Of a DNA stretch of 37,607 nucleotides, positions 12,913 to 35,277 are shown piece after piece. Source of the DNA: a virus (Duplodnaviria > Heunggongvirae > Uroviricota > Caudoviricetes). Both the position numbers and the translations under genes were made by a program. The stretch is taken from IMG/VR virus record IMGVR_UViG_2636415906_000005, one strand, 5' to 3'. The number at the start of each line of letters is the position of its first letter. Within the stretch, counting starts at the first letter, position 1. The notes under the pieces are model-generated. The model saw nothing but the letters and a program-made list of their open reading frames with translations, was not told the DNA's origin and ran no database searches.

Positions 12913-12924
12913 AAGAGGTGAGTG

Positions 12925-14412: not shown

Positions 14413-14446
14413 CGGGTCCCCGATGGCGGTCCATTATCGGTATTCA

Positions 14447-15949: not shown

Positions 15950-16099
15950 TATTTATTGTTTTGTAATAAACGGTTTCGGCTTAGGTTTGTTCTGACACAA
16001 CTACGGCACTGAGCTAAATCTAGCGGATAGTCAGCTCTGAGCCAGTGGCGGACGTAACAACTACTATTGCTGAGATTTTAATGGATTGAGGAGCAAGAA

Positions 16100-16495: not shown

Positions 16496-16620
16496 CTCTT
16501 CAATTACTATATCTCATTCATAGCAAACTGACAGATTTGATGATGTTCTATATACGAAACCTGTGATGTCAAGTCTGAGCTAATACAAATAAACATAATA
16601 TCAGAGAAATACATTTTATT

Positions 16621-16643
16621 AGCTCGCTACGGCGAGCTTTTTA
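16621..16643 (+). terminator. Rho-independent terminator between the lipoprotein genes and the lysis cassette
   Basis: AGCTCGC-tacg-GCGAGCT hairpin followed by TTTTT. Confidence 0.6.
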
Positions 16644-16746
16644 TATTGCATCGTCTCCAGCATATATATCAATTAAGGCTCTGATTGATGTGTCTGGAAG
16701 CCTACACATAATAACTATGCCATCCGTTCCGTGCGGAGGTGAGGCT

Positions 16747-16962
16747 ATGAAATCCATGGACAAAATTTCAACAGGCATTGCCTACGGCACCTCCGCAGGC
16801 AGTGCTGGCTACTGGTTTTTACAGCTGCTCGATAAAGTCACGCCCTCACAGTGGGCAGCAATAGGTGTGCTGGGTAGCCTGGTATTTGGCCTGCTGACGT
16901 ACCTGACAAACCTTTATTTCAAGATTAAAGAAGACAAGCGTAAGGCTGCACGGGGAGAGTAA
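16747..16962 (+). CDS. Class II holin (phage 21 S-like pinholin) with dual-start motif
   Basis: 71-aa product [71 protein letters not shown], recognised as S21-type pinholin; Met1/Met4 dual start; GGAGGTGAGG ribosome-binding site. Confidence 0.85.
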
Positions 16963-16966
16963 TTCA

Positions 16967-17311
16967 ATGACTCAAAAATATGAACTGATTGTGAAAGGGA
17001 TCCGCAATTTTGAGAATAAAGTTACGGTAACTTTAGCGTTACGGGACAAAGAACGCTTTGACGGTGAAATTTTTGACCTGGACATCTCGCTGGACCGTGT
17101 TGAAGGTGCCGCGCTGGAGTTTTATGAGGCAGCAGCCAGAAGGAGCATCAGACAGGTCTTCCTGGATGTTGCTGCCGGGTTATGTGAAGGGGATGAGCTG
17201 TCGCCGGAAAAGCGCCCCATAATTTTAGAGGCGCAGAATGTGTGGATAACCTACAAAGGAAAGCTACCGGGAAGAATTACTGGTTCTCTGAAGACTCCGC
17301 CGAAATGGTAA
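16967..17311 (+). CDS. Hypothetical 114-aa protein inserted between holin and endolysin
   Basis: ATG 5 nt after the holin stop with GGGGAGAG upstream; protein-like composition; no family recognised. Confidence 0.5.
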   Translation: MTQKYELIVKGIRNFENKVTVTLALRDKERFDGEIFDLDISLDRVEGAALEFYEAAARRSIRQVFLDVAAGLCEGDELSPEKRPIILEAQNVWITYKGKLPGRITGSLKTPPKW

Positions 17312-17549
17312 TTTCACCAGCATATTTTTCTTCCAGTAATACCGCCAGCCACTTGAAAGAATTTTGTTGTTGCTGGGACCATTTGGGGTTGAGTGATTCA
17401 AGCTGGAGCGATGCCAGTGTTGGTTGCATTTGTTCCTTGGGAATTGAGAATGCCAGATATGAAAATGCGACAGTAAGGGCATTTACATCATCCCGAAGCT
17501 TGGAAATGCAGTCGAGCAACTCCTGTAGAGAAATGGTGCTATTGTCCAT
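17277..17549 (-). CDS. Hypothetical 90-aa protein, convergent with and 3'-overlapping the preceding gene
   Basis: Minus-strand ATG at 17549 preceded by GAGAGGA about 7 nt upstream; overlaps the 16967-17311 gene by about 35 bp at the 3' ends; a competing plus-strand ORF (17242-17574) exists. Confidence 0.4.
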   Translation of the reverse strand: MDNSTISLQELLDCISKLRDDVNALTVAFSYLAFSIPKEQMQPTLASLQLESLNPKWSQQQQNSFKWLAVLLEEKYAGEITISAESSENQ

Positions 17550-17654
17550 AAACAATCCTCTCTATTGTATTTAACTATTCCTTGCCTGATTCAACAGGCC
17601 GGGACAGATAAACATATCCAGGGTTCAGAAACCGATAAATCCTGATAAATATCC

Positions 17655-18197
17655 ATGAACGTAAAAATCAGATACGGCCTGTCGGCTGCCGTTCTGGCAC
17701 TGATTGCCGTCGGTGCGCCTGCGCCTGATATTCTCGACCAGTTTCTGAATGAAAAAGAAGGTAACCACACAACGGCATACCGCGATGGTTCCGGCATCTG
17801 GACCATCTGTCGGGGTGCCACGGTGGTGGATGGAAAACCCGTTTTTCCCGGTATGAAACTGTCGAAGGAAAAATGCGACCAGGTTAACGCCATTGAACGG
17901 GATAAGGCGCTGGCATGGGTGGAGCGCAATATTAAAGTGCCACTGACCGAACCACAGAAAGCGGGTATAGCGTCATTTTGTCCCTATAACATTGGCCCCG
18001 GTAAGTGTTTCCCGTCGACGTTTTATAAGCGGCTGAATGCCGATGATCGTAAGGGGGCATGCGAGGCGATTCGCTGGTGGATAAAAGATGGTGGGCGTGA
18101 TTGCCGCCTGACAAAAGGGCAGAAGAATGGCTGTTATGGGCAGGTCGAGCGGCGCGATCAGGAAAGCGCACTGGCGTGCTGGGGGCTGGAGCAATGA
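17655..18197 (+). CDS. SAR endolysin (T4-lysozyme-like glycoside hydrolase with N-terminal signal-anchor-release segment)
   Basis: N-terminal hydrophobic segment LSAAVLALIAVGAPAP followed by the catalytic E-x8-D-x5-T triad (EGNHTTAYRDGSGIWT); pairs with the pinholin. Confidence 0.85.
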   Translation: MNVKIRYGLSAAVLALIAVGAPAPDILDQFLNEKEGNHTTAYRDGSGIWTICRGATVVDGKPVFPGMKLSKEKCDQVNAIERDKALAWVERNIKVPLTEPQKAGIASFCPYNIGPGKCFPSTFYKRLNADDRKGACEAIRWWIKDGGRDCRLTKGQKNGCYGQVERRDQESALACWGLEQ

Positions 18198-18730
18198 AAA
18201 TTAATCCGGATCTTATAGGCGTTGTCGTTATTGCTGGCCTTTCGGTCGCTCTCGTCAAGAGTTGCTCTCACGCCAGTAATCTTCAGAGCGATAACGACGT
18301 TCTGCGAAGTGACAACTCTATGCTGGGGCAGGTAATCGCCACCCAGGCATTCAACTTCAATCGATTCAATCAGGTTGCAGAACATGCCAACAGTCTTAAC
18401 TCCCTGATCGACACCAGCACCGAAAAAACCGTAATCGAATACCGGGAGATTCTCCGCCGTGAAAAAACCTGTGATCTGCCTGTTCCTGCTGATATCGCTG
18501 GTGGGTTGCTCGAATACACGTACCGTTTACGTGCCAGCGCCATGCACACCGATACCGGCAGACCTAATGAAGCCTATGATCGTACCGCTACCACCAGCTC
18601 AATGACCTACTGCCAAGCTGTCTTGTGGATTAAGCCGCTACTGGCGTTGATAGAAAAAGGAAATAATAATTTTTCGAGTATTCGTGAAATTGATGAGTTG
18701 CGTTACAGACCATCTGAGCATGGCCAGTAA
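18194..18730 (+). CDS. Inner-membrane spanin Rz (i-spanin)
   Basis: ATG overlaps the endolysin stop (ATGA); N-terminal transmembrane segment VVVIAGLSVALV followed by a predicted coiled-coil region; standard position. Confidence 0.75.
   Translation: MKINPDLIGVVVIAGLSVALVKSCSHASNLQSDNDVLRSDNSMLGQVIATQAFNFNRFNQVAEHANSLNSLIDTSTEKTVIEYREILRREKTCDLPVPADIAGGLLEYTYRLRASAMHTDTGRPNEAYDRTATTSSMTYCQAVLWIKPLLALIEKGNNNFSSIREIDELRYRPSEHGQ
18459..18605 (+). CDS. Outer-membrane lipoprotein spanin Rz1 (o-spanin), embedded in Rz in the +1 frame
   Basis: 48-aa hand translation from GTG: MKKPVICLFLLISLVGCSNTRTVYVPAPCTPIPADLMKPMIVPLPPAQ, with lipobox LVGC and a Pro-rich mature part; absent from the ORF track because it is under 60 aa. 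Confidence 0.6.
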   Translation: MKKPVICLFLLISLVGCSNTRTVYVPAPCTPIPADLMKPMIVPLPPAQ

Positions 18731-18805
18731 GGTTGCAGGAAATTTAAAATCTGGCGATGAAATTTAATATTAGAAATTCATTGCCTAGTGAGATTAATAA
18801 TGGGC

Positions 18806-18847
18806 ATCCCTTTGTGACGATAAGCTTTAACACATTCACAAAGGGAT
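18806..18847. repeat. 12-bp perfect inverted repeat ATCCCTTTGTGA / TCACAAAGGGAT between convergent Rz and the minus-strand cargo gene (likely bidirectional terminator)
   Basis: Read directly from the sequence; lies between the 3' ends of convergent genes. Confidence 0.55.
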
Positions 18848-18898
18848 ATTTAATATAGGGTGGTTAATTCCCACTTGCTGTGGTGTTTAGGGGGTAAT

Positions 18899-19591
18899 TC
18901 AAATCTTATCTAACTCATTATAGGCTTCGATAATAAAAATTCTGATTTTAATAAGGCATGATTCAATGAAAGGAATTACTTCATGGTCATTCCCATGGAA
19001 TCTTATTTTTTTCTCTTCGGTAATGACTATGTTTAAAGGTACACCATTACCACTTCTTTGTAATTTCCCATTTTCGAAAGTAAAGTCTTCTAATTTTTTG
19101 CCATTGATGTGGTTGTTTTTAAAGAGAATTTTTGCTGAGCTTCCTGCTGTGATTAAACCAAAACCATCTACGCTCACACTTAGGTCTTTAACAGAACTCT
19201 CTTCTCTTAAGGGGATTGGTTGTCTGTGCTTTACTTCATTAGTGAGATTACACATCATTTCCAACCAAGATTCGCCAGTGTGATAATCCTGTATAGAAGT
19301 AAAAATTTTATATAATGGAGAAGATGATGGTGGGTTTATTTTTAGCGTCTTTGAGAAAAATTTATCAATAAACTCTTTTTTTCCGTAAGGGAAATATATT
19401 TTGGGGCGCTCATCATTACTGCGTGGAGAAATATATTTATCATAGGTATCATTAGCGAGATACTCTAAGGAACTTCGTAAGTTTTCCAAAATAGCTTTGA
19501 CTTTTACAGGCTTGATATGCTGTGTCTGTCTCATTATGTCAAGACTTTCTTCAACTTCTTGCAATAAGTCCAACGAGCCTTCTCTAGACAT
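18899..19591 (-). CDS. Hypothetical 230-aa protein, AT-rich minus-strand cargo gene in the bor-equivalent position (candidate accessory/defense gene)
   Basis: Long ORF on the strand opposite all neighbouring late genes, with AAGGAG about 9 nt upstream of the ATG on the minus strand and visibly low GC; no recognised family. Confidence 0.65.
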   Translation of the reverse strand: MSREGSLDLLQEVEESLDIMRQTQHIKPVKVKAILENLRSSLEYLANDTYDKYISPRSNDERPKIYFPYGKKEFIDKFFSKTLKINPPSSSPLYKIFTSIQDYHTGESWLEMMCNLTNEVKHRQPIPLREESSVKDLSVSVDGFGLITAGSSAKILFKNNHINGKKLEDFTFENGKLQRSGNGVPLNIVITEEKKIRFHGNDHEVIPFIESCLIKIRIFIIEAYNELDKI

Positions 19592-19969
19592 ACAGGTAAT
19601 TCTCCTTTATGAATTTTCAACATGTTATAACTAATAATATATTTATCATATAACTGTATGAATAAATTGTGAGATTAGTAATGCAAGTTTCTATCCATAG
19701 TGTTCTCTAAGTACCCGCTTCCATCATGTTGTTACGGACGGTATGGCTAAAACAAAGCACCTGAAGTTAAACGTTCTGAACTTTATGCTCGTTGAGCATA
19801 TGAATTATCTGTAACCCGATGCGCTGGTTGTGGTTCACATTGATGGTCGTAATCAGCAGCGGTGGTGCCTGATGGCATGCAACTTCTTACTTATAAAACT
19901 TCGTATGGAATTGTTGCCATAACGAGCCCAGCTTAGCAGTTTTTAATGGGTCCTCCCGGCAGTGTGTCC

Positions 19970-20060
19970 TGCCACGGGGCGGGAGCGTCGCGGAAAAAGG
20001 CTAGTTTTTGAAATTTCATTCGTCATCACCACTACTGTAATGTATTGATATTACAGTGGT
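19970..20060 (+). other. cos-like region (cosN/cosB candidate) upstream of the terminase small subunit
   Basis: GGGGCGGGAGCGTCGCGG resembles the lambda cosN core GGGCGGCGACCTCGCGGG as I recall it; followed by CATTCGTCAT and the palindrome CTGTAAT-N9-ATTACAG. Coordinates approximate. Confidence 0.35.
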
Positions 20061-20162
20061 TTTATTTTTGTGGTGTCGATTTTGATTGTTTTTTGTTCAT
20101 CACTAACACCGTTTGCCTAAAGTTGTTCGCAAGATGCATGTTTAAAACATTCTGGAGCGGGT

Positions 20163-20657
20163 ATGGATCGAGAGTTAAAAAATCTGACGCTGAATATCAG
20201 TCAACTGGCGGCTCTGTCAGGTGTACATCGCCAGACTGCTGCGGCAAGGCTGCAAAATCTACCCGTTGCAGGGGGGCATGAAAGCAACCTCAAGCTTTAT
20301 CGGGTGGTTGATATTGTGTCGGCATTTCTGGCATTACCACCGCCGGTTGCAGAAGGCGAAATGGACGCGCATGAGCGCAAAGCCTGGTATCAGTCTGAAC
20401 GTGAGCGTCTTAAGTTCGAACAGGAAACGGCACAACTCATTCCGGCCAGTGATGTCAGACGGGAGTTTGCCATCTGGGCAAAAGCGGTCGTGCAGGTGCT
20501 GGAGACATTACCGGATATTCTTGAACGTGACTGCGGTCTGCAGCCTGCCGCTGTGAGCCGTGTTCAGTCCATTATTGATGATCTGCGCGATCAGATAGCC
20601 CTGCGGGTGACCGAAGCAGGTGCGGATGATGAGGAGGAATTACAGCGGGAGGAGTAA
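20163..20657 (+). CDS. Terminase small subunit (Nu1-like)
   Basis: 164-aa product with an N-terminal helix-turn-helix (LNISQLAALSGVHRQTAAARL) and an acidic C-terminus; immediately precedes, and overlaps the start of, the large subunit. Confidence 0.8.
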   Translation: MDRELKNLTLNISQLAALSGVHRQTAAARLQNLPVAGGHESNLKLYRVVDIVSAFLALPPPVAEGEMDAHERKAWYQSERERLKFEQETAQLIPASDVRREFAIWAKAVVQVLETLPDILERDCGLQPAAVSRVQSIIDDLRDQIALRVTEAGADDEEELQREE

Positions 20658-22759
20658 TGCTGAATCAGGAAACCGCAAAGGCAGCACGAACCGATTCAGG
20701 TTATATCCTTCGCGCACCGAGACGAATGCGGGTTGCTGATGCCGTTGCTCAGTATATGCGGGTGCCCATGGGGGCAGGGAACTCAGTCCCGTGGGATCCG
20801 CTGGTGGCACCGTATGTTATTGAGCCGATGAACTGCCTGGCCTCGCGTGAATACGACGCAGTGATATTTGTTGGCCCGGCACGAACCGGCAAGACTATCG
20901 GCCTGATTGACGGCTGGGTGATTTACAACGTGATTTGCGATCCTGCTGATATGCTGATCATACAGATGACGGAGGAAAAAGCCCGCGAACACTCCAAAAA
21001 ACGACTCGCCAGAACGTTTCGCGTCAGCCCGGAAGTGGTCAGTCGCCTGAGTCCGAACAAAAATGACAACAACGTTTATGACAGAACATTCCTTGCTGGT
21101 AACTACCTGAAAATCGGCTGGCCGTCAGTCAATATCATGTCCTCATCAGATTATAAATGCGTCGCGCTGACGGATTATGACCGTTTTCCGGAAGATATTG
21201 ATGGCGAGGGGGATGCTTTCTCTCTTGCCTCAAAACGTACCACAACATTTATGTCCAGTGGTATGACGCTTGTGGAGAGTTCCCCCGGCAGGGATGTGAA
21301 GGATGTGAAATGGCGACGGACTTCACCGCATGAGGCTCCACCAACCACGGGGATACTGTCGCTCTATAACCGTGGCGATCGCCGTCGCTGGTACTGGCCT
21401 TGTCCACACTGTGGTGAGTATTTTCAGCCCTGCGGCGATGTGGTTGCTGGTTTCCGTGATATTGCCGATCCCGTGCTGGCAAGTGAGGCGGCTTATATTC
21501 AGTGTCCTTCCTGTTCAGGACGGATTATGCCTGAACAAAAACGTGAGCTGAACGGACGTGGGGTCTGGTTGCGGGATGGTGAATCCATCAATGCGGATGG
21601 CAGTCGTTATGGTGATCCCCGACGCTCACGTATTGCGTCATTCTGGATGGAGGGTCCGGCAGCTGCTTACCAGACACTCTCGCAACTCGTTTACAAACTG
21701 CTTACTGCAGAACAGGAATACGAGACAACCGGAAGTGAAGAAACACTCAAGACGGTTATCAATACCGACTGGGGATTACCTTATCTTCCCCGCGCCAGCA
21801 TGGAGCAACGAAAAAGTGAACTGCTTGAGCAGCGGGCAGAGCCAGTTCCTTCCCGCAGTGTGCCGGATGGCGTTAATTTCCTTGTGGCGACAGTGGATGT
21901 GCAGGCGGGACGTCATCGCCGTTTTGTGGTTCAGGTAACGGGCTATGGCAGCCGTGGCGAACGCTGGATTATTGATCGTTACAACATCACGCAGTCATTG
22001 CGCGGTGACAGCGACGGGGAGAGCCAGCGAATTGATCCGGCCAGCTATCCGGAAGACTGGGATGTCCTGCTGACGGATGTTTTTCATAAAAGCTGGCCGC
22101 TGGCCTCCGATCCTTCTCAACAAATGCGACTGATGGCAATGGCGGTGGACTCCGGCGGTGAAGACGGGGTCACTGATAATGCCTATAAATTCTGGCGTCG
22201 TTGCCGTCGTGATGGCCTTGGTAAACGTATTTACCTGTTTAAGGGCGACAGCATCCGGCGCGCAAAACTGATCACCCGTACATTCCCTGATAACACCGGA
22301 CGAACGGGCCGACGGGCGCAGGCCGCAGGTGATGTGCCGCTCTGGCTTCTTCAGACGGATGCACTGAAAGACCGGGTGAATAACGCGTTATGGCGTGACT
22401 CGCCAGGTCCCGGCTATGTGCATTTCCCTGACTGGCTGGGGAGTTGGTTTTACGACGAACTGACGTATGAAGAGCGGAGCAGTGACGGGAAATGGAGTAA
22501 GCCAGGTCGCGGTGCCAACGAAGCTTTTGACCTGATGGTGTATGCCGAGGCTCTGGTCATTCTGCATGGATACGAAAAGATCCGCTGGCCGGATGCACCG
22601 GAGTGGGCGAGCCGGGAAACCTGGCTGGAGTGTGTCCCGGACAGTACCGAACCGTCACCCACACCGGAACCGGTATCCACGCCTGTTAAAAAACAAAAAC
22701 GGAAGAAAACAGTAACTGACGATGTTAACCCCTGGCTGACTTCCGGAGGATGGTTATGA
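20657..22759 (+). CDS. Terminase large subunit (lambda gpA-like)
   Basis: 700-aa ORF with a Walker A-like GPARTGKT motif and overall lambda A-like organisation. Confidence 0.9.
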   Translation: MLNQETAKAARTDSGYILRAPRRMRVADAVAQYMRVPMGAGNSVPWDPLVAPYVIEPMNCLASREYDAVIFVGPARTGKTIGLIDGWVIYNVICDPADMLIIQMTEEKAREHSKKRLARTFRVSPEVVSRLSPNKNDNNVYDRTFLAGNYLKIGWPSVNIMSSSDYKCVALTDYDRFPEDIDGEGDAFSLASKRTTTFMSSGMTLVESSPGRDVKDVKWRRTSPHEAPPTTGILSLYNRGDRRRWYWPCPHCGEYFQPCGDVVAGFRDIADPVLASEAAYIQCPSCSGRIMPEQKRELNGRGVWLRDGESINADGSRYGDPRRSRIASFWMEGPAAAYQTLSQLVYKLLTAEQEYETTGSEETLKTVINTDWGLPYLPRASMEQRKSELLEQRAEPVPSRSVPDGVNFLVATVDVQAGRHRRFVVQVTGYGSRGERWIIDRYNITQSLRGDSDGESQRIDPASYPEDWDVLLTDVFHKSWPLASDPSQQMRLMAMAVDSGGEDGVTDNAYKFWRRCRRDGLGKRIYLFKGDSIRRAKLITRTFPDNTGRTGRRAQAAGDVPLWLLQTDALKDRVNNALWRDSPGPGYVHFPDWLGSWFYDELTYEERSSDGKWSKPGRGANEAFDLMVYAEALVILHGYEKIRWPDAPEWASRETWLECVPDSTEPSPTPEPVSTPVKKQKRKKTVTDDVNPWLTSGGWL

Positions 22760-22968
22760 ACCAGAATGATATCGAAGCCATGATTCAGCGTTATACGGAA
22801 GCTGAAATGGCGGTGCTGGACGGAAAATCCGTCACCTTTAATGGTCAGCAGATGACCATGGAAAACTTATCTGAGATCCGGCAGGGGCGGCAGGAGTGGG
22901 AGCGCCGCCTTGCGGCTCTGATTACACGACGACGGGGGCATCCCGGGTACCGGCTGGCGAGGTTCTGA
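22756..22968 (+). CDS. Head-tail joining protein (gpW-like)
   Basis: 70-aa product ending ...RRLAALITRRRGHPGYRLARF, similar to the lambda gpW C-terminus; ATG overlaps the terminase stop. Confidence 0.7.
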   Translation: MNQNDIEAMIQRYTEAEMAVLDGKSVTFNGQQMTMENLSEIRQGRQEWERRLAALITRRRGHPGYRLARF

Positions 22969-24476
22969 TGGCAATTCTTGATGATGTGATTGGCGTTTTT
23001 TCACCAGGATGGAAAGCGGCAAGGCTGCGTTCCCGTGCGGTGATCCAGGCTTATGAGGCCGTAAAAACGACGCGGACACACAAAGCCCGGCGGGAAAACC
23101 GAACTGCCGACCAGTTAAGCCAGTACGGGGCCGTGTCGTTACGTGAGCAGGCCCGTTACCTTGATAACAACCACGATCTGGTCATTGGTGTATTTGACAA
23201 GCTGGAAGAACGGGTGGTGGGGAAAAACGGGATTATTGTCGAGCCACATCCGGTATTACGCAATGGGGCCATTGCCCGTGACCTGGCTGCGGAGATTCGC
23301 ACCCGATGGAGTGAATGGTCTGTCAGCCCGGAAGTCACCGGGCAGTTTACCCGTCCGATGCTGGAACGTCTGATGCTGCGTACCTGGCTGCGCGATGGTG
23401 AGGTGTTTGTCCAGATGGTTTCCGGGCGCATAAACAGCCTGACGCCTTCTGCCGGTGTTCATTTCTGGCTGGAGGCACTCGAGCCGGACTTTATTCCCAT
23501 GACCAGTGATGAGAGCAACAGGCTGAATCAGGGCGTGTTTGTTGATGACTGGGGGCGTCCCGAAAAATATCTGGTGTATAAAAGTCGTCCCGTATCCGGA
23601 CGGCAGATGGAAACCAAAGAAGTGGATGCAGAGCGAATGCTGCATCTTAAATTTGTTCGCCGTCTGCACCAGATGCGCGGGACGTCTTTGTTGTCCGGTG
23701 TGCTGATCCGCCTCAGTGCCCTGAAAGAGTATGAAGATTCTGAGCTGACTGCAGCAAGGATCGCCGCTGCTCTGGGGATGTACATCCGGAAAGGCGACGG
23801 GCAGAGCTATGAACCGGATGGTAATGGCAGCAAGGATAAGGAACGCGAGCTTACCATTCAGCCAGGCATTATTTACGACGATCTGAAACCCGGCGAAGAA
23901 ATCGGAATGGTGAAGTCGGATCGTCCCAATCCTAACCTTGAAACTTTTCGTAATGGTCAGTTGCGTGCCGTGGCGGCGGGCAGTCGTCTGAGTTTTTCCA
24001 GTACGGCACGCAACTATAACGGCACTTACAGCGCCCAGCGTCAGGAGCTGGTTGAATCCACTGATGGCTACCTGATCCTGCAGGACTGGTTTATTGGTGC
24101 CGTCACCCGCCCGATGTATCGTGCCTGGCTGAAACAGGCTGTGGCATCCGGTGTTATCAGGCTACCCCGCGATCTTGACCGTTCTTCACTGTATACCGCG
24201 GTGTATTCCGGACCGGTGATGCCGTGGATTGACCCTGTTAAGGAGGCTGAGGCCTGGAAAATTCAGATTCGTGGTGGAGCAGCGACAGAATCAGACTGGG
24301 TACGTGCAGGTGGTCGTAATCCGGATGATGTCAAACGTCGGCGCAAGGCCGAAATTGATGAAAACCGCACGCTGGATCTGGTATTTGATACCGATCCGGC
24401 CAGTGATAAAGGAGGCAGCAGTGCCGCAACGAAACGACAGGAGCCGCAGCACACCGACGACCAGTCCGAAGAATAA
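22968..24476 (+). CDS. Portal protein (lambda gpB-like)
   Basis: About 502-aa product from MAILDDVIGVFSPGWKAARLRSRAVIQAYEAVKTTRTHKARRENRTADQL..., recognised as lambda-like portal; ATG overlaps the W stop. Confidence 0.9.
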   Translation: MAILDDVIGVFSPGWKAARLRSRAVIQAYEAVKTTRTHKARRENRTADQLSQYGAVSLREQARYLDNNHDLVIGVFDKLEERVVGKNGIIVEPHPVLRNGAIARDLAAEIRTRWSEWSVSPEVTGQFTRPMLERLMLRTWLRDGEVFVQMVSGRINSLTPSAGVHFWLEALEPDFIPMTSDESNRLNQGVFVDDWGRPEKYLVYKSRPVSGRQMETKEVDAERMLHLKFVRRLHQMRGTSLLSGVLIRLSALKEYEDSELTAARIAAALGMYIRKGDGQSYEPDGNGSKDKERELTIQPGIIYDDLKPGEEIGMVKSDRPNPNLETFRNGQLRAVAAGSRLSFSSTARNYNGTYSAQRQELVESTDGYLILQDWFIGAVTRPMYRAWLKQAVASGVIRLPRDLDRSSLYTAVYSGPVMPWIDPVKEAEAWKIQIRGGAATESDWVRAGGRNPDDVKRRRKAEIDENRTLDLVFDTDPASDKGGSSAATKRQEPQHTDDQSEE

Positions 24477-24489
24477 TTCCTGGTTCAGG

Positions 24490-25668
24490 ATGCAGGCTGG
24501 TCACCAGAGTGACGCGGATATTTATATTTATGACGAGATTGGTTTCTGGGGTGTTACAGCGAAGCAGTTTATCAGTGATCTGAATGCACTGGGCGATATC
24601 ACCCACATTAATCTCCATATCAATTCACCGGGTGGCGATGTCTTTGAAGGCATCGCCATTTTTAATGCACTGAAAACACATGGTGCGTCCATTACCGTTT
24701 ATGTCGACGGTGTGGCGGCGTCAATGGCGTCGGTCATTGCGATGGTGGGAAACCCGGTCATTATGCCGGAAAACACCTTCATGATGATTCATAAACCATT
24801 TGGCTTTACGGGCGGTGATGCGGAGGACATGCGCACCTATGCCGACCTGCTCGATAAGGTTGAGGCGGTTCTGTTACCCGCTTATGCACAGAAAACCGGG
24901 AAAACCACCGATGAAATTGCTGCCATGCTGGCGGATGAGACCTGGATGTCCGGTGCCGAATGTCTGGCACATGGATTTGCTGATCAGGTGACGCCAGCCG
25001 TTAAGGCAATGGCATGTATTCAGTCAAAACGTACAGAGGAATTTAAAAAGATGCCGGAATCCATTCGAAACATGATTACTCCGCCACGCAACAGTGCTCC
25101 ACGCGTACAGGATGATGAACCTGCAGCCTCCCGGACGCCAGTGCAGGCAGCAGCACCCGTGGTGGATGAAAACAGTATCCGTGCGCAGGTACTGGCAGAG
25201 CAAAAAGCGCGTGTAAACGGTATTAATGATCTGTTTGCCATGTTTGGCGGGCGTTATCAGACGCTGCAGGCTCAGTGTCTTGCCGATCCTGAATGTTCGC
25301 TGGAGCAGGCCCGCGAAAAGCTGTTGAACGAGATGGGGCGCGAGTCCACGCCATCCAATAAAAATACACCGGCTCATATTTATGCCGGTAATCTGGAGGC
25401 CACAGGGCTGTATCAGGTGCCGTTGTCAGCGGCGCAGCCGGGCGATGTGCTGCTGTGCTGTTTTGGTTCATCGGTGCCGAATCATGCCGCCATTTACTGT
25501 GGCGACGGCGGGCTGCTGCACCATATTCCTGAACAACTGAGCAAACGAGAGAGGTATACCGACAAATGGCAGCGACGCACACACTCCCTCTGGCGTCACC
25601 GGGCATGGCGCGCATCTGCCTTTACGGGGATTTACAACGATTTGGCCGCCGCATCGATCTGCGTGTGA
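24490..25668 (+). pseudogene. Chimeric ORF: head maturation protease (gpC-like, ClpP/S49 fold) N-terminal part fused in frame to a tail assembly protein K-like (NlpC/P60-type) C-terminal fragment; scar of a head/tail gene deletion
   Basis: The N-terminal 200 aa carry ClpP/S49-like motifs (INSPGGDVFEGIAIFNALK ... VAASMASVIAMVG ... MIHKP). The C-terminal 90 aa (QPGDVLLCCFGSSVPNHAAIYCGDGGLLHHIPEQ...) look like the NlpC/P60-type end of lambda K. It is followed directly by gpI and gpJ, with no scaffold, capsid, tail tube or tape-measure genes in between. Confidence 0.6.
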
Positions 25669-26207
25669 AAACGGGGGCCGAAGCCATCCGGGCGCTGGCC
25701 ATGCAGATCCCGGCGTTTCGTCAGAAGCTGAGCGACGGCTGGTATCAGGTACGCATTGCCGGGCGTGATACAGGTGAAACGGAATTATCAGCCCGTCTTA
25801 ATGAACCGCTGGCAAATGGTGCTGTGATCCATATCGTGCCGCGTCTGGCGGGAGCCAAAAGTGGCGGTGTGTTTCAGGCTGTGCTGGGGGCGGCTGTTAT
25901 GGCGGTTGCTATATGGATGCCGGGGGTAGGAATTATGGCGAGTAATCTGCTGTTTTCTCTCGGTGCCAGTATGACGCTTGGCGGTGTTGCACAGATGCTG
26001 GCCCCTAAACCCAAAACCCCCCGCACACAGACAACGGATAACGGCAAACAGAACACCTATTTTTCTTCACTGGATAACATGGTTGCCCAGGGCAATGTTC
26101 TGCCTGTTCTGTACGGTGAAATGCGCGTGGGGTCACGCGTGGTTTCTCAGGAGATCAGCACGGCAGACGAAGGGGATGGTGGTCAGGTTGTGGTGATTGG
26201 TCGCTGA
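25566..26207 (+). CDS. Tail assembly protein I (lambda gpI-like)
   Basis: 213-aa product with the C-terminal block TTDNGKQNTYFSSLDNMVAQGNVLPVLYGEMRVGSRVVSQEISTADEGDGGQVVVIGR, recognised as gpI; precedes J. Confidence 0.85.
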   Translation: MAATHTLPLASPGMARICLYGDLQRFGRRIDLRVKTGAEAIRALAMQIPAFRQKLSDGWYQVRIAGRDTGETELSARLNEPLANGAVIHIVPRLAGAKSGGVFQAVLGAAVMAVAIWMPGVGIMASNLLFSLGASMTLGGVAQMLAPKPKTPRTQTTDNGKQNTYFSSLDNMVAQGNVLPVLYGEMRVGSRVVSQEISTADEGDGGQVVVIGR

Positions 26208-26228
26208 TGCAAAATGTTTTATGTGAAA

Positions 26229-26247
26229 CCGCCTGCGGGCGGTTTTG
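26229..26247 (+). terminator. Hairpin plus T-run between I and J (weak terminator-like element)
   Basis: CCGCC-tgcg-GGCGG followed by TTTTG. Confidence 0.3.
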
Positions 26248-26267
26248 TCGTTTATGGAGCGTGAGGA

Positions 26268-29200
26268 ATGGGTAAAGGAAGCAGTAAGGGGCATACCCCG
26301 CGCGAAGCGAAGGACAACCTGAAGTCCACGCAGTTGCTGAGTGTGATTGATGCCATCAGTGAAGGGCCGATTGAAGGTCCGATGGATGGATTAAAAAGCG
26401 TGCTGCTGAACAGTACGCCGGTGCTGGACAGTGATGGGAATACCAACATCGCCGGTGTCACGGTGGTGTTCCGGGCTGGTGAGCAGGAGCAGACTCCGCC
26501 GGAGGGATTTGAATCCTCCGGCTCCGAGACGGTGTTGGGTACGGAAGTGAAATACGACACGCCGATCACCCGCGCCATCACGTCGGCAAACATCGACCGA
26601 CTGCGCTTTACCTTCGGTGTGCAGGCACTGGTGGAAACCACCTCAAAGGGGGACCGGAATCCGTCGGAAGTTCGCCTGCTGGTTCAGATACAGCGTAATG
26701 GTGGCTGGGTGACGGAAAAAGACATCACCATTAAGGGCAAAACCACCTCGCAGTATCTGGCCTCGGTGGTGGTGGATAACCTGCCGCCGCGCCCGTTTAA
26801 TATCCGGATGCGCAGAATGACGCCGGACAGCACCACAGACCAGCTGCAGAACAAAACGCTCTGGTCGTCATACACCGAAATCATCGATGTGAAACAGTGC
26901 TACCCGAACACGGCACTGGTCGGCGTGCAGGTGGACTCGGAACAGTTCGGCAGCCAGCAGGTGAGCCGTAATTATCATCTTCGCGGGCGCATTCTGCAGG
27001 TGCCGTCGAACTATAACCCGCAGACGCGGCAATACAGCGGTATCTGGGACGGAACGTTTAAGCCAGCATACAGCAACAACATGGCCTGGTGTCTGTGGGA
27101 TATGCTGACCCATCCGCGCTACGGCATGGGGAAGCGTCTCGGTGCGGCGGATGTGGACAAATGGGCGCTGTATGTCATCGGCCAGAATTGCGACCAGTCG
27201 GTGCCGGATGGCTTTGGTGGCACGGAGCCGCGCATCACCTGTAATGCCTACCTGACCACACAGCGCAAGGCGTGGGATGTTCTCAGTGATTTCTGCTCGG
27301 CGATGCGCTGTATGCCGGTATGGAACGGGCAGACGCTGACGTTCGTGCAGGACCGACCGTCGGATAAGGTGTGGACCTATAACCGCAGTAATGTGGTGAT
27401 GCCGGATGATGGCGCGCCGTTCCGCTACAGCTTCAGTGCCCTGAAGGACCGTCATAATGCCGTTGAGGTGAACTGGATTGACCCGGATAACGGCTGGGAG
27501 ACGGCGACAGAGCTTGTTGAAGATACGCAGGCCATTCTCCGTTACGGTCGTAACGTCACGAAGATGGATGCCTTTGGCTGTACCAGCCGGGGGCAGGCGC
27601 ACCGCGCCGGGCTGTGGCTGATTAAAACGGAACTACTGGAAACGCAGACCGTGGACTTCAGCGTGGGTGCGGAAGGGCTTCGCCATGTGCCGGGCGATGT
27701 CATTGAAATCTGCGATGATGACTATGCGGGGATCAGCACCGGCGGGCGCGTGCTGGCGGTGAACAGCCAGACCCGGACGCTGACGCTCGACCGTGAAATC
27801 ACGCTGCCATCCTCCGGTACCACGCTGATAAGCCTGGTTGACGGAAGTGGCAATCCGGTCAGCGTGGAGGTCCAGTCCGTCACCGACGGCGTGAAGGTAA
27901 AAGTGAGCCGTGTTCCTGACGGCGTTGCCGGATACAGCGTATGGGGGCTGAAGCTGCCGACGCTGCGCCAGCGCCTGTTCCGCTGCGTGAGTATCCGTGA
28001 GAACGACGACGGCACGTATGCCATCACCGCCGTGCAGCATGTACCGGAAAAAGAAGCCATCGTGGATAACGGGGCGCACTTTGACGGCGACCAGAGCGGC
28101 ACGGTGAATGGTGTCACGCCGCCAGCAGTGCAGCACCTGACTGCCGAAGTCACCGCAGACAGCGGGGAGTATCAGGTACTGGCCCGCTGGGACACGCCGA
28201 AGGTGGTGAAGGGCGTGAGTTTCATGCTTCGCCTGACCGTGGCAGCGGATGACGGCAGTGAGCGGCTGGTCAGCACGGCCCGGACGACGGAAACCACTTA
28301 CCGCTTCACACAACTGGCTCTGGGGAACTACAGGCTGACAGTCCGGGCAGTAAATGCGTGGGGGCAGCAGGGCGATCCGGCGTCGGTATCGTTCCGGATT
28401 GCCGCACCGGCAGCGCCGTCGCGGATTGAGCTGACGCCGGGCTATTTTCAGATAACCGCCACGCCGCATCTTGCGGTTTATGATCCGACGGTACAGTTTG
28501 AGTTCTGGTTCTCGGAAAAGCGGATTGCGGATATCAGGCAGGTTGAAACCACAGCACGCTATCTTGGCACGGCGCTGTACTGGATAGCCGCCAGTATCAA
28601 TATCAGGCCGGGCCATAATTATTATTTTTACGTTCGCAGTGTGAACACCGTTGGCAAATCGGCATTCGTGGAGGCTGTTGGTCAGCCGAGTGATGACGCA
28701 TCCGGCTATCTGGATTTTTTCAAAGGCGAGATAGGGAAAACCCATCTGGCTCAGGAGCTGTGGACGCAGATTGATAACGGTCAGCTTGCGCCTGACCTGG
28801 CTGAAATCAGGACATCCATTACGGATGTCAGCAATGAAATCACACAGACCGTCAATAAGAAACTGGAAGACCAGAGTGCAGCGATCCAGCAGATACAGAA
28901 GGTTCAGGTTGATACAAATAATAATCTGAACAGCATGTGGGCTGTGAAGCTGCAGCAGATGCAGGACGGACGCCTTTATATCGCGGGTATCGGTGCCGGT
29001 ATTGAGAACACCCCCGACGGCATGCAGAGTCAGGTGCTGCTGGCGGCAGACAGGATTGCGATGATTAATCCTGCAAATGGCAACACAAAACCGATGTTTG
29101 TTGGTCAGGGTGATCAGATATTCATGAATGAAGTGTTCCTGAAATATCTGACGGCTCCCACCATTACCAGCGGCGGTAATCCTCCTGCATTTTCCCTGAC

Positions 29201-29747
29201 ACCGGACGGAAAGCTGACCGCTAAAAATGCAGATATCAGTGGCAGTGTGAATGCGAACTCCGGGACGCTCAACAACGTTACGATAAATGAGAACTGTCAG
29301 ATTAAAGGGAAACTGTCAGCCAACCAGATTGAAGGCGATATTGTCAAAACAGTGGGTAAGGCTTTCCCGCGGGACTCCCGGGCACCGGAGCGGTGGCCAT
29401 CAGGGACCATTACCGTCAGGATTTATGACGATCAGCCGTTTGACCGGCAGATTGTTATTCCGGCGGTGGCATTCAGCGGTGCTAAACATGAGAGAGAGCA
29501 TACTGATATTTACTCCTCATGCCGCCTGATAGTGAAGAAAAATGGTGCTGAAATTTATAACCGTACCGCGCTGGATAATACGCTGATTTACAGTGGTGTT
29601 ATTGATATGCCTGCTGGTCACGGCCACATGACGCTGGAGTTTTCGGTGTCAGCATGGCTGGTAAATGACTGGTATCCCACAGCAAGTATCAGCGATTTGC
29701 TGGTTGTGGTGATGAAGAAAGCCACCGCAGGCATCAGTATCAGCTGA
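26268..29747 (+). CDS. Tail tip / host specificity protein J (central tail fiber)
   Basis: 1159-aa product starting [38 protein letters not shown], recognised as lambda J-like over most of its length; the C-terminal receptor-binding region differs from what I recall of lambda. Confidence 0.95.
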
Positions 29748-29766
29748 ATTTTATAACCCATATACG

Positions 29767-29790
29767 GGCGCCAGAAATGGCGCCTTTTTT
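29767..29790 (+). terminator. Rho-independent terminator after J
   Basis: GGCGCC-agaaat-GGCGCC hairpin followed by TTTTTT. Confidence 0.6.
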
Positions 29791-29814
29791 ATTGCAGAAA
29801 AGCGAGAGGTAATT

Positions 29815-30414
29815 ATGCGTAAAGTTTGTGCAGCCATTTTGTCCGCAGCCATCTGTCTGGCCGTATCCGGTGCGCCTGCATGGGCGTCTGAGCAGCAGGC
29901 CACACTGAGCGCAGGGTATCTTCATGCCCGTACGAACGCTCCCGGCAGCGATAATCTGAACGGGATTAACGTGAAATACCGTTATGAGTTTACGGACACG
30001 CTGGGGCTGATTACGTCATTCAGTTATGCCAACGCTGAAGATGAGCAAAAAACGCATTACAGCGATACCCGCTGGCATGAGGATTCCGTGCGTAATCGCT
30101 GGTTCAGCGTGATGGCGGGGCCGTCTGTGCGCGTGAATGAATGGTTCAGCGCGTATGCGATGGCGGGTATGGCTTACAGCCGTGTGTCGACTTTCTCCGG
30201 GGATTATATCCGCGTAACTGACAACAAGGGGAAAACGCACGATGTGCTGACCGGAAGTGATGACGGTCGCCACAGCAACACGTCTCTGGCGTGGGGAGCT
30301 GGCGTGCAGTTTAACCCGACCGAATCCGTGGCCGTTGATGTCGCTTATGAAGGCTCCGGCAGTGGTGACTGGCGCACTGACGGGTTCATCGTGGGTGTTG
30401 GTTATAAATTCTGA
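29815..30414 (+). CDS. lom: Lom outer membrane beta-barrel protein (Ail/Lom family)
   Basis: 199-aa product with signal peptide MRKVCAAILSAAICLAVSGAPAWA and a C-terminal beta-strand ending GVGYKF; the lambda lom position between J and stf. Confidence 0.9.
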   Translation: MRKVCAAILSAAICLAVSGAPAWASEQQATLSAGYLHARTNAPGSDNLNGINVKYRYEFTDTLGLITSFSYANAEDEQKTHYSDTRWHEDSVRNRWFSVMAGPSVRVNEWFSAYAMAGMAYSRVSTFSGDYIRVTDNKGKTHDVLTGSDDGRHSNTSLAWGAGVQFNPTESVAVDVAYEGSGSGDWRTDGFIVGVGYKF

Positions 30415-30441
30415 TTAGCCAGGTAACACAGTGTTATGACA

Positions 30442-30467
30442 GCCCGCCGGTTCAGGCGGGCTTTTTT
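30442..30467 (+). terminator. Rho-independent terminator after lom
   Basis: GCCCGCC-ggttca-GGCGGGC hairpin followed by TTTTTTG. Confidence 0.65.
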
Positions 30468-30472
30468 GTGGG

Positions 30473-33400
30473 GTGAATATGGCAGTAAAGATTTCAGGTG
30501 TACTGAAAGACGGCACAGGAAAACCGGTACAGAACTGCACAATCCAGCTGAAAGCAAAACGTAACAGTACCACGGTGGTGGTGAACACGCTGGCTTCAGA
30601 AAATCCGGATGAAGCCGGGCGTTACAGTATGGACGTTGAGTACGGTCAGTACAGCGTTATTCTGTTGGTGGAAGGATTCCCGCCGTCACATGCCGGGACC
30701 ATCACAGTGTATGAAGATTCCCGACCCGGTACGCTGAATGATTTTCTCGGTGCCATGACGGAGGATGATGCCCGTCCGGAGGCACTGCGCCGTTTTGAGC
30801 TGATGGTGGAAGAGGTGGCGCGTAACGCGTCCGTGGTGGCACAGAACACGGCAGCCGCAAAGAAGTCAGCCAGTGATGCCAGCACATCTGCCAGTGAGGC
30901 GGCAACCCGTGCGACTGATGCTGCAGGCTCAGCACGCGCAGCCAGCACGTCAGCCGGACAGGCCGCGTCGTCGGCTCAGTCAGCATCTTCCAGCGCAGGA
31001 ACGGCATCAACAAAGGCCACTGAAGCATCGAAAAGTGCTGCTGCTGCAGAGTCCTCAAAAAGCGCGGCAGCTACCAGTGCCAGTGCCGCGAAAACGTCAG
31101 AAACGAATGCTGCAGCGTCACAACAATCAGCAGCCACTTCTGCATCCACCGCGACCACGAAAGCGTCAGAAGCTGCCACCTCAGCCCGGGATGCGGCGGC
31201 TTCAAAAGAGGCGGCAAAATCATCAGAAACGAACGCATCCTCGAGCGCCAGTAGCGCAGCTTCCTCGGCAACGGCGACAGCAAATTCTGCGAAGGCGGCC
31301 AAAACGTCCGAGACGAACGCCAGGTCTTCTGAAACGGCAGCGGGACAGAGTGCCTCAGCTGCGGCAGGCTCAAAAACAGCGGCTGCGTCGTCTGCCAGCG
31401 CCGCGTCAACAAGTGCCGGGCAGGCCTCAGCCAGTGCCACCGCCGCCGGAAAATCGGCAGAAAGCGCCGCATCATCCGCTTCAACAGCCACAACGAAGGC
31501 TGGCGAAGCCACTGAGCAGGCCAGCGCAGCAGCGAGGTCAGCTTCCGCAGCGAAGACATCCGAAACGAACGCGAAAGCGTCGGAAACCCGTGCAGAATCC
31601 TCAAAAACGGCTGCTGCATCGTCCGCCAGTTCGGCGGCGTCATCGGCATCATCTGCGTCTGCTTCAAAAGATGAGGCGAGCAGACAGGCATCAGCAGCGA
31701 AAGGCAGCGCCACGACGGCATCCACGAAGGCGACAGAGGCAGCTGGCAGTGCGACGGCGGCAGCTCAGAGCAAAAGTACGGCGGAATCCGCGGCAACGCG
31801 CGCTGAGACAGCGGCAAAACGGGCAGAGGATATTGCATCCGCCGTGGCGCTTGAGGATGCGAGCACGACGAAAAAGGGGATAGTACAGCTCAGCAGTGCG
31901 ACCAACAGCACTTCCGAGTCACTGGCGGCAACGCCAAAAGCCGTTAAGGCCGCGTATGACCTGGCTAACGGGAAATACACCGCACAGGATGCAACGACAG
32001 CACAGAAAGGGATAATCCAGCTAAGCAGCGCGACCAACAGCACGTCTGAAACGCTGGCGGCAACGCCAAAGGCAGTAAAATCAGCCTATGACAATGCAGA
32101 GAAACGTCTGCAGAAAGACCAGAACGGCGCTGATATACCCGATAAGGGACGCTTCCTGAACAACATTAACGCGGTCAGTAAAACAGACTTTGCTGATAAG
32201 CGTGGTATGCGTTATGTGCGGGTTAACGCTCCTGCAGGTGCAACATCTGGAAAATATTACCCTGTTGTTGTTATGCGTTCTGCTGGCTCAGTAAGCGAAC
32301 TGGCATCAAGGGTCATTATCACCACGGCAACGCGAACCGCAGGAGATCCGATGAATAACTGCGAGTTTAACGGATTTGTTATGCCTGGTGGCTGGACTGA
32401 CAGGGGGCGTTATGCTTATGGAATGTTCTGGCAATATCAAAACAATGAACGAGCCATCCACTCAATAATGATGAGTAATAAGGGCGATGATTTGCGCTCT
32501 GTGTTCTATGTTGATGGCGCTGCTTTCCCTGTTTTTGCGTTTATCGAAGATGGCCTGTCAATATCCGCACCTGGTGCTGATCTCGTTGTTAATGATACGA
32601 CCTATAAGTTTGGGGCAACAAATCCAGCGACTGAATGTATCGCGGCGGACGTTATCCTTGATTTTAAGAGTGGGCGTGGTTTTTATGAGTCTCATTCGTT
32701 AATCGTTAACGATAACTTGTCGTGCAAAAAACTTTTTGCCACAGACGAAATTGTAGCGCGTGGTGGTAATCAGATTCGAATGATAGGTGGGGAGTATGGG
32801 GCATTATGGCGTAATGATGGCGCTAAAACTTACCTGCTGCTTACCAATCAAGGTGATGTTTATGGTGGATGGAATACATTAAGACCGTTTGCTATTGATA
32901 ACGCAACCGGCGAACTGGTTATTGGAACCAAGCTGTCTGCAAGTCTGAACGGTAACGCATTGACAGCAACAAAGCTGCAAACGCCAAGACTGGTTTCTGG
33001 GGTTGAGTTTGATGGTTCCAAAGATATTACTTTAACCGCCGCGCATGTGGCTGCTTTTGCCAGAAGGGCAACGGATACATATGCCGATGCGGATGGTGGC
33101 GTTCCCTGGAATGCCGAATCAGGCGCTTACAATGTCACCCGCTCTGGCGACAGCTATATTCTGGTTAACTTCTATACCGGAGTCGGAAGTTGCCGGACCT
33201 TGCAGATGAAGGCGCATTACAGAAATGGTGGTCTGTTCTACCGTTCTTCAAGAGACGGTTATGGTTTTGAGGAAGACTGGGCAGAAGTTTATACCTCGAA
33301 AAATCTTCCACCAGAAAGCTACCCAGTCGGCGCACCAATCCCGTGGCCATCAGATACCGTTCCGTCTGGTTATGCCCTGATGCAGGGGCAGACTTTTGAC

Positions 33401-34009
33401 AAATCTGCTTACCCGAAACTTGCGGCCGCTTATCCGTCAGGCGTGATCCCTGATATGCGTGGCTGGACGATTAAGGGCAAGCCCGCCAGTGGTCGTGCCG
33501 TATTGTCTCAGGAACAGGACGGCATTAAATCGCACACCCACAGCGCCAGCGTATCCAGTACGGATTTGGGTACGAAAACCACATCATCGTTTGATTACGG
33601 CACTAAATCCACGAATAACACTGGTGCGCATACTCATAGTTTAAGTGGCAGCACGAATGCAGCTGGTAATCACAGCCATAGAGATGGCCGTCGATTTAAC
33701 CCCAGTGTTTTTAAAGATACTTATCAATATGGTTATACAAGCTCAGGTCAAAATACCTGGGGTGTACAAGGTTCAGTAGGTATGTCTACGGGGTGGTTAG
33801 CTAATACCAGTACAGATGGTAATCATAGCCACTCACTGTCCGGCACAGCAGCATCTGCAGGTGCACACGCGCATACTGTCGGTATTGGTGCTCATACGCA
33901 CTCCGTTGCGATTGGTTCACATGGACACACCATCACCGTTAACGCTGCTGGTAATGCGGAAAACACCGTCAAAAACATCGCATTTAACTATATTGTGAGG
34001 CTTGCATAA
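30473..34009 (+). CDS. stf: Side tail fiber protein (Stf-like) with long Ala/Ser-rich repeat shaft and His-rich C-terminal domain
   Basis: 1178-aa product; N-terminus [30 protein letters not shown] is tail-fiber-like; a low-complexity A/S/T/K/E shaft with recurring AAKTSETNA motifs; C-terminal GAHTHS/NHSHS repeats typical of lambda/T4 gp37-type fiber tips. Confidence 0.9.
30830..31890 (+). repeat. Degenerate tandem coding repeats (Ala/Ser-rich, recurring AAKTSETNA / SETNA(K/R)SSE units) within stf
   Basis: Repeated motif visible in the translation and the DNA; explains the several long artefactual ORFs in other frames and on the minus strand of this interval. Confidence 0.6.
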
Positions 34010-34590
34010 TGGCATTCAGAATGAGTGAACAACCACGGACCATAAAAATTTATAATCTGCTGGTCGGAACTAATGAATTTATTGGTGAAGGTGACGCATA
34101 TATTCCGCCTCATACAGGTCTGCCAGCAAACAGTACCGATATTGCACCACCAGATATTCCTGCTGGCTTTGTGGCTGTTTTCAACAGTGATGAGGCATCG
34201 TGGCATCTCGTTGAAGACCATCGGGGTAAAACGGTTTATGACGTGGCTTCCGGCGACGCGTTATTTATTTCTGAACTCGGCTCATTACCGGAAAATGTCA
34301 CCTGGTTATCCCCGGAAGGGGAGTTTCAGAAGTGGAACGGCACAGCCTGGGTGAAAGATGCAGAAGCAGAAAAACTATTCCGGATCCGGGAGGCGGAAGA
34401 AACAAAAAACAGCCTGATGCAGGCAGCGAATGAGCATATTGCGCCACTTCAGGATGCTGTAGATCTGGAAATCGCAACGGAGGAAGAAAACTCGTTGCTG
34501 GAAGCCTGGAAAAAGTATCGGGTGTTGCTGAACCGTGTTAATACAACAACTGCACCGGATATTGAATGGCCAGTAGCACCTATAGGGTAA
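34009..34590 (+). CDS. tfa: Tail fiber assembly protein (Tfa)
   Basis: 193-aa product; start overlaps the stf stop; C-terminal motif [31 protein letters not shown] is characteristic of Tfa chaperones. Confidence 0.85.
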
Positions 34591-35180: not shown

Positions 35181-35277
35181 GTTGCTGGCGGCATGGAAGA
35201 AATATCGGGTCTTACTGATATCGTGTTGGCACTTCCTTAGTGCGGTTATCGAATGGCCAGCTGTACCTGTGGGGTAA
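35181..35277 (+). pseudogene. Remnant of an alternative tfa 3' end (degenerate duplicate)
   Basis: DNA about 70% similar by eye to tfa 34495-34590; reads ..[20 protein letters not shown] with an internal stop. Confidence 0.5.

Follow-up and report, generated by a model that had tools for sequence, protein, structure and literature searches.

mEp460 and cdtI are viable, complete lambdoid phages in which a ClpP-type protease, a scaffold and the capsid protein are encoded by one fusion gene. In phage lambda, the nested genes C and Nu3 are analogous to the protease-plus-scaffold part of this arrangement, whereas the capsid is encoded separately by E. We analysed the IMG/VR virus record IMGVR_UViG_2636415906_000005, a stretch of 37,607 nucleotides (hereafter, the window) carrying an Escherichia coli prophage of the mEp460/cdtI type, with the same order of structural genes, between rspB and an N-terminally truncated ydfJ. 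The analysis centred on the open reading frame (ORF) at positions 24490-25668 of the plus strand. A first-pass annotation had described this ORF as an in-frame chimera of a head protease and the C-terminus of the tail assembly protein K, marking a deletion of the head and tail-shaft genes. Alignments with an intact sister prophage and with mEp460, each showing a single gap at this position, confirmed that description.

Decayed lambdoid prophages are well known in E. coli. The Qin prophage of K-12 has lost essentially all of its head genes and most of its tail genes; by comparison, the element in the window has lost one block of 8.8 kb and stands at a much earlier stage of decay. In E. coli O157 Sakai, defective lambdoid prophages (Sp4, Sp9, Sp15 and others) carry deletions or disruptions of morphogenetic genes while keeping many phage functions (Asadulghani et al. 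2009, PMC2669165). Co-resident prophages complemented several of the Sakai prophages with head or packaging defects, which were packaged and in some cases transferred (PMC2669165). Experiments have demonstrated excision, complementation-dependent packaging and transfer for the Sakai prophages, whereas the element described here is known from its sequence.

A single deletion in the late operon

Intact relatives at the same chromosomal site were found using a 25-kb query. The closest was the prophage of strain APEC E18005 (O78:H51; NZ_CP126946.1), hereafter the sister; related intact prophages were also present at the rspB/ydfJ site in E19025 and A19. The sister occupies the same rspB/ydfJ site and has the same gene order from the integrase gene to tfaQ, with 99.7-99.9% nucleotide identity, and its TerL, portal, I, J, Lom and Tfa proteins have accessions identical to those of the window. 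It differs in carrying 8,809 bp that are missing from the window, and in a patch of seven single-nucleotide polymorphisms (SNPs) in K.

The alignment of the window with the sister ran from 11601 to 25391 at 99.94% identity and from 25389 to 37607 at 99.75% identity. Further to the left, window positions 1-12604 showed 8 mismatches in 12,604 bp and no gaps. The missing block corresponds to positions 13791-22599 of the sister locus (L003). The two prophages are otherwise colinear from the integrase gene to the ydfJ remnant, and the only insertion or deletion besides the 8,809-bp gap is a single gap of 1 bp. The same gap was seen against mEp460, in which positions 5254-14061 (8,808 bp) are missing from the window, identity being 99% to the left of the gap and 93% to its right. 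For mEp460 and cdtI together, DNA identity to the window was 99% from the small terminase gene to the breakpoint and 93% in the region from K to J.

The left parent gene encodes, in the sister, a protein of 675 amino acids with a ClpP domain at residues 31-191 and the capsid domain PF25209 at residues 375-672. As the parent is a ClpP-type protease/scaffold/major-capsid fusion, scaffold and capsid belonged to one gene. The first-pass annotation had called the start of the ORF "ClpP/S49-type". The ClpP assignment was upheld by PF00574 and NF045542, while the lambda C-like S49 alternative was not: lambda gpC was rejected as the parent of the N-terminal part, having given a BLASTP E-value of 0.002 and 23% identity only, and the parent is ClpP-type (S14). 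The right parent gene, K, encodes 247 amino acids in the sister, with a Prok-JAB domain at residues 4-98, including the JAMM motif HSHPGG at residue 68, and an NlpC/P60 domain at residues 111-224.

The breakpoints lie after residue 324 of the protease protein, in its linker/scaffold region, and before residue 157 of K, inside the NlpC/P60 domain, with one Asn codon (25390-25392) bridging the join. On the head side, the deletion removed the capsid domain in full, together with the cement (decoration) protein Phage_cement_2 and a head protein of the Gifsy-2 family. The tail genes lost are Z, U, the gene for the tube protein V, those for the chaperones G and T, the tape measure gene, M and L. The N-terminal two thirds of K are also gone, including the JAB domain with its HSHPGG motif and the NlpC/P60 catalytic residue Cys121. 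The loss itself had been recognised from the window alone; its size, which had been put at about 10 kb from lambda, is 8.8 kb.

These alignments indicate that 8,809 bp of the late operon were almost certainly lost in one illegitimate recombination event, and that the chimeric ORF arose as a by-product of this loss in a decaying prophage. The left break would have fallen in the linker between the ClpP-like protease and capsid domains of the fusion gene and the right break inside the NlpC/P60 domain of the tail-tip assembly gene K, with the ends joined at the trinucleotide TAA, possibly by slipped mispairing or by microhomology-mediated end joining. The chimera would still be co-transcribed with the late operon and would presumably have no function of its own.

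The trinucleotide TAA at 25389-25391 (plus strand) is present at both parental sites, as seen from the overlap of the alignments with both the sister and mEp460; it provides the microhomology that had been suggested as worth looking for at the junction. In a simulation using random pairs of endpoints within the two genes, a microhomology of at least 3 bp had a chance probability of 0.057. Of the 16 bases to the left of the join, 10 match between the parental sites (P about 0.03 given the 3-bp match), in a stretch that was chosen post hoc. Microhomology-assisted illegitimate joining is thus weakly in keeping with the data.

A cluster of differences was noted immediately to the right of the junction. 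The right arm shows 31 differences from the sister, of which seven fall at 25429-25511 (83 bp), and the following 5 kb contain none. Five of the seven SNPs match other intact K alleles (those of MS6198, mEp460 and lambda), so that the cluster is mostly an allelic mosaic; the other two, at 25503 (Glu to Gly) and 25511, have no counterpart in the three K alleles compared. The best intact K 3' end among the complete genomes, that of STE15, was 98.9% identical. Post-deletion decay and repair-associated mutagenesis were considered as causes of the cluster and rejected, because five of its seven SNPs are shared with intact K alleles.

This patch could also be the trace of an exchange, which would favour a deletion by homologous or site-specific recombination, involving co-resident prophages, an insertion sequence (IS) or an invertase, rather than by microhomology joining. 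The parental sites, however, share no extended homology (3 bp exactly and the imperfect 10 of 16), and there is no sequence relationship between the protease gene and K. Neither an IS element, nor a recombinase gene, nor a long repeat was found at the junction in the PGAP annotation or the alignment of the parental sites. A homologous or site-specific origin was therefore regarded as quite improbable.

The chimeric reading frame

The ORF at 24490-25668 is open throughout its 392 codons. A likelier start is the GTG at 24421-24423 on the plus strand, which is preceded by the Shine-Dalgarno sequence AGGAGG at 24410-24415, as read directly from the sequence. This GTG lies 69 bp upstream of the ATG at 24490 in the same frame, adds 23 codons to give a product of 415 amino acids, and overlaps the 3' end of the portal gene by 56 nt. 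The GTG is the start chosen by PGAP, while the ATG is the start used in the mEp460 annotation. With a strong AGGAGG and a GTG upstream of the ATG, genes of this protease family may often be annotated 23 codons short.

The two parts of the chimera could be assigned separately. The left part (24421..25391, plus strand) represents residues 1-324 of the 675-residue fusion protein, comprising the ClpP domain and linker, and is 100% identical to the sister. In Pfam, CLP_protease (PF00574) matched residues 23-168 of the 392-residue ORF (E 1.8e-36). The ClpP serine motif AASMAS (Ser78; 24721-24723) and histidine motif MIHKP (His101; 24790-24792) are retained. The right part (25392..25668, plus strand) represents K residues 157-247, an assignment resting on Pfam, the gpK alignment and a partial pseudogene called by PGAP. 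Here NLPC_P60 was matched by its C-terminal part only, with model positions 39-105 of 105 at residues 303-369, and the C-terminal 96 residues of the chimera were 93% identical to residues 104-199 of lambda gpK (E 3e-64), in agreement with the NlpC/P60-like, K-derived C-terminus first proposed. A sequence search of the PDB using K returned only a distant JAB-domain match, 2kks, which was uninformative for the K remnant.

Profile searches gave the same division. In PHROGs, the head maturation protease family phrog_133 (profile positions 12-320 of 668) matched residues 1-305, and the minor tail protein family phrog_30 (profile positions 445-541 of 544) matched residues 296-392; both matches are partial and were called as non-overlapping. 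No single known protein was found to be colinear with the whole ORF, which consists of two partial parents. The NCBIfam model for the ClpP-like prohead protease/major capsid protein fusion protein, NF045540, was matched by the chimera over positions 2-304 of 652 only, with a score of 404 bits that lies below the curated cut-off of 475, compared with 985.7 bits over positions 2-651 for the sister gene. The score for NF045542, the ClpP-related head maturation protease domain, was 217 bits and exceeded its cut-off of 120. The major capsid domain PF25209 (Phage_capsid_4) was absent from the chimera by Pfam and from the whole window by tblastn. The K part, of which only residues 157-247 are kept, lacks the JAB/MPN domain with its HxH...S..D motif, and its NlpC/P60 domain is incomplete, as the catalytic Cys121 (TDCYT) lies in the deleted part. 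Judged from these motifs, the protease domain of the chimera looks complete yet has lost its capsid substrate, while the K remnant is without both of its catalytic centres.

A search for strong terminator-like sites between the terminase gene and the end of J found none, so that the chimera would be expected to be transcribed with the late operon. The open frame, the strong ribosome-binding site and the conserved ClpP serine and histidine motifs, together with the annotation of the product as an ordinary protein by GenBank submitters, could be taken to indicate that the ORF works as a new gene, the protease-K fusion having been selected for a role in the cell or against phages. The in-frame state, however, is not remarkable. 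The starts of the parental genes are separated by 9,313 bp, and 8,809 bp were deleted; the join is in frame because both values leave a remainder of 1 on division by three, which a random deletion would achieve with a prior of one in three, and it carries no weight. The absence of Cys121 and of the JAB motif from the K part, the score below the NF045540 cut-off and the restriction of the chimera to one near-identical lineage also speak against a new function, as do the different endpoints, from protease to L, of the independent deletion in strain MS6198 described below. A selected function for the chimera was accordingly considered highly improbable.

The annotation of the locus differs between databases. 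RefSeq PGAP records a partial pseudogene for each of the two parts, namely "head maturation protease, ClpP-related, missing C-terminus" and "NlpC/P60 family protein, missing N-terminus". In GenBank and the NCBI non-redundant protein database (nr), the product is named without any indication of a fusion, as "ATP-dependent Clp protease proteolytic subunit" (e.g. HBB0559247.1) or "protease/scaffold protein" (e.g. AKP84274.1). In nr, the exact protein was found under the first name as a 415-residue product on 28 contigs, and under the second as a 392-residue product on 4.

Distribution and age of the deletion

The junction was present in 4 of 5,426 complete E. coli genomes (GZM7, ACN002, XB2 and NC22), in all cases at 100% identity. 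The window is 100% identical to the prophage of GZM7 (chicken liver, China) and nearly identical to those of ACN002, XB2 (chicken) and NC22 (duck); three of the four complete carrier genomes are recorded as being from chicken or duck. A literature search on strain ACN002 found no paper describing the prophage. Beyond the complete genomes, the exact protein was encoded on about 30 contigs. In every contig that was read, the chimera lay in the context TerL-W-portal-chimera-I-J, and five representative carrier loci differed from the window by 0-1 SNP in 7.2 kb. A junction identical throughout, together with such low divergence among the carriers, points to a single, recent and clonally inherited event.

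An assembly artefact, in which the region had collapsed between repeats, was considered as well, although nothing specific speaks for it. The identical junction recurs in at least 24 further contigs (NCBI and Logan assemblies) besides the four genomes, which were finished independently of one another, and this argues against a collapse; moreover, with only 3 bp in common between the parental sites, no repeat exists that could have collapsed. The probability of an artefact was considered negligible.

The parent protease gene was found in 2,118 of the 5,426 complete genomes. In an evenly spaced sample of 60 from 2,122 parent-gene records, 59 carried a full-length fusion annotation. One independent and different deletion was identified in a related prophage of strain MS6198 (NZ_CP015834.1; L005 8232-9920), in which this protease gene has likewise been cut short and linked to the tail-tip region, with removal of the capsid and tail-shaft genes as in the window. 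Its endpoints differ, the left one lying 130 bp closer to the start of the protease gene and the right one in the last ~100 bp of L; there is 1 bp of microhomology, about 8.4 kb are lost, and K is additionally frameshifted. As the endpoints differ, no particular fusion recurs. With 59 of the 60 sampled annotations full length and one different deletion, a recurrent hot spot or a selected architecture was not supported. In the avian strain STE15 (NZ_CP095823.1; L006 7426-12276), the ydfJ-site prophage has a full complement of head and tail genes, but the tape measure gene is interrupted by an internal stop codon and K carries a frameshift, a different route to the same defect.

Retained genes and the search for replacements

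The late genes that flank the chimera are intact. Their order is the small terminase-like gene, TerL, the gene in the W position, the portal gene and the chimera, followed directly by I, J, Lom, Stf and Tfa, which agrees with the first-pass account of terminase, W and portal preceding the ORF and of I and J following it (Pfam, PGAP). All 21 structural proteins of the sister were compared with the window by tblastn, and the percentages given here for retained genes are protein identities to the sister; all of these genes are on the plus strand. The gene in the small terminase position (20163..20657; DUF1441 by Pfam) encodes an intact protein of 164 amino acids and is 100% identical. The terminase large subunit (20657..22759) is an intact protein of 700 amino acids with the Pfam domains GpA_ATPase and GpA_nuclease, 100% identical and with the same WP accession as in the sister. 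A 70-residue gene in the position of lambda W (22756..22968), a PGAP coding sequence annotated as a head-tail adaptor in mEp460, and the intact 502-residue portal gene (22968..24476; Phage_portal_2) are both 100% identical.

Downstream of the chimera, the gene for tail assembly protein I (25605..26207, with an alternative GTG start at 25665; Lambda_tail_I) is 100% identical to that of the sister, as is the intact 1159-residue tip attachment protein J (26268..29747), in which six J-specific Pfam domains were recognised. The same identity was found for the Lom outer-membrane protein (29815..30414; Ail_Lom) and for the tail fibre assembly protein Tfa (tfaQ; 34009..34590; Caudo_TAP). The side tail fibre Stf (30479..34009), of 1176 amino acids with phage_tail_N, fibre repeats and Collar domains, is full length and 99.9% identical. 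The intactness that had been claimed for terminase, portal, J, Stf and Tfa was thereby borne out.

The missing head and tail-shaft genes were not found elsewhere in the window. None of the ten fully deleted proteins had a tblastn match in it, and no other capsid or tail-tube gene was identified in the window by PGAP, Pfam or PHROGs; the view that these genes are missing from the element as a whole, and not only from the junction, therefore stands. The other ORFs of the window are assigned to integration, recombination, immunity, replication, antitermination, moron and lysis functions. The only ORFs without an assignment are one of 356 amino acids, with no Pfam or PHROG match, and one of 230 amino acids, belonging to a PHROG of unknown function, and both are also present in the intact sister. 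From this gene content, the prophage alone would be unable to build capsids or tail tubes. The element matches a cryptic prophage in being integrated, in being colinear with an intact relative except for one gap, and in having lost virion-essential genes without replacement.

Nothing contradicts the deletion itself, but the reading of the locus as the outcome of one illegitimate deletion in a prophage that can no longer form particles has some weak points. A wholly novel capsid gene would be missed by tblastn and by profile searches, although the 356- and 230-residue ORFs are the only candidates left. The 3-bp microhomology is only marginally above chance, so that the proposed joining mechanism is tentative. 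The sister is not the direct ancestor and differs by the seven-SNP patch beside the junction. Finally, expression of the chimera and failure to make particles are inferred.

An alternative reading is that the element is a deletion derivative that has been maintained as a helper-dependent mobilisable element or gene reservoir, being packaged or recombined when a related phage supplies the capsid and tail shaft. Its packaging and tail-tip genes are undamaged, and a second K-like locus is present in ACN002 and XB2. Without the ydfJ remnant it measures about 36 kb, compared with about 45 kb for the sister, or about 80%; the lower packaging limit of lambda is near 80% of genome length. The packaging of defective O157 Sakai prophages through complementation (PMC2669165) provides a precedent for such an element. 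For a gene reservoir, lambda provides a precedent: it picks up DNA from Qin, Rac and DLP12 through recombination, with frequencies of about 2e-6 to 2e-4 (PMC3945230).

Other observations argue against maintenance of this kind. The identity of the retained genes to those of the sister is explained by recency (0-1 SNP per 7.2 kb), with no signal of selection; because the deletion is recent, their unchanged state reflects lack of time. GZM7 is without a second close homologue of the protease or K region. The junction 24-mer, which was looked for as a sign of packaging, was absent from IMG/VR and the JGI metagenomes, and none of the 50,697 phage records searched spans the junction. Truncations of the protease gene are rare, with one in the 60 records sampled. 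The element also differs from the phage satellites (P4-like elements, phage-inducible chromosomal islands (PICI) and cf-PICI) in having no dedicated gene set: the window is a complete sister genome minus one block, and no genes beyond the content of the complete sister phage were found in it. While the role first suggested for the retained genes, with a helper or in recombination, is plausible in the light of published work on other elements, maintenance of the element for that purpose was considered unlikely. There is likewise only a small chance that it may still be packaged and spread with a co-resident or superinfecting mEp460-like phage, or donate J, Stf and Tfa by recombination. A decaying prophage with one recent deletion remains the preferred reading.

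Prophage site and other features of the window

Content of the Qin type was annotated or detected in the window, including dicB, DicF, ydfA, ydfB, ydfD, hokD/sok, rem, essD, ydfR, tfaQ and the split ydfJ. The chromosomal site and the gene repertoire are those of the Qin cryptic prophage of K-12. The DicF small RNA (4757-4808, minus strand) adjoins dicB and ydfD, and the sok antisense RNA (10724-10898, plus strand) adjoins hokD; both are Qin-type features.

Two tRNA genes are located downstream of the antiterminator gene, at 14261-14336 and 14447-14523. The first has the anticodon CAT and is called as Met by ARAGORN and as Ile by PGAP; the second is Arg-TCT. A match to the small RNA family STnc100 follows them at 15220-15410. 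Two ORFs (15521-15949 and 16121-16495) contain the TolA C-terminal domain PF06519, with E-values of 3e-23 and 1e-14, respectively. They occupy a moron position, with the Q antiterminator/tRNA region on one side and the holin gene on the other, and the first of them (15521-15949) is truncated in the sister.

Near the right end, the Rfam family "IS009" was matched at 34352-34550 (212 bits) within the tfaQ coding sequence; the match probably reflects the definition of the family and not a separate gene. Short Tfa-like fragments are present between tfaQ and the ydfJ remnant at 35179-35274 and 35917-35988, with 56-58% identity to the C-terminus of Tfa, and are likely to be relics of alternative tail fibre assembly genes.

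Significance

The locus is a case of ordinary, recent prophage decay, an instance of a well-known process that is already annotated as pseudogenes in RefSeq. Its importance beyond annotation is small, and no new biology is implied. For annotation, the result corrects the GenBank records in which the chimera is treated as a normal gene. The carrier strains might be traced by using the junction as a lineage marker, and the element could be a convenient natural substrate for complementation studies of head-and-tail-less prophages. Should helper-dependent packaging prove true, the prophage would be a de facto helper-dependent element in avian E. coli, spreading the host-range genes J, Stf and Tfa. 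As it stands, it documents to the base a very early step in the decay of a prophage at the Qin (ydfJ) site, while intact prophages of the parent type continue to circulate in related avian strains.

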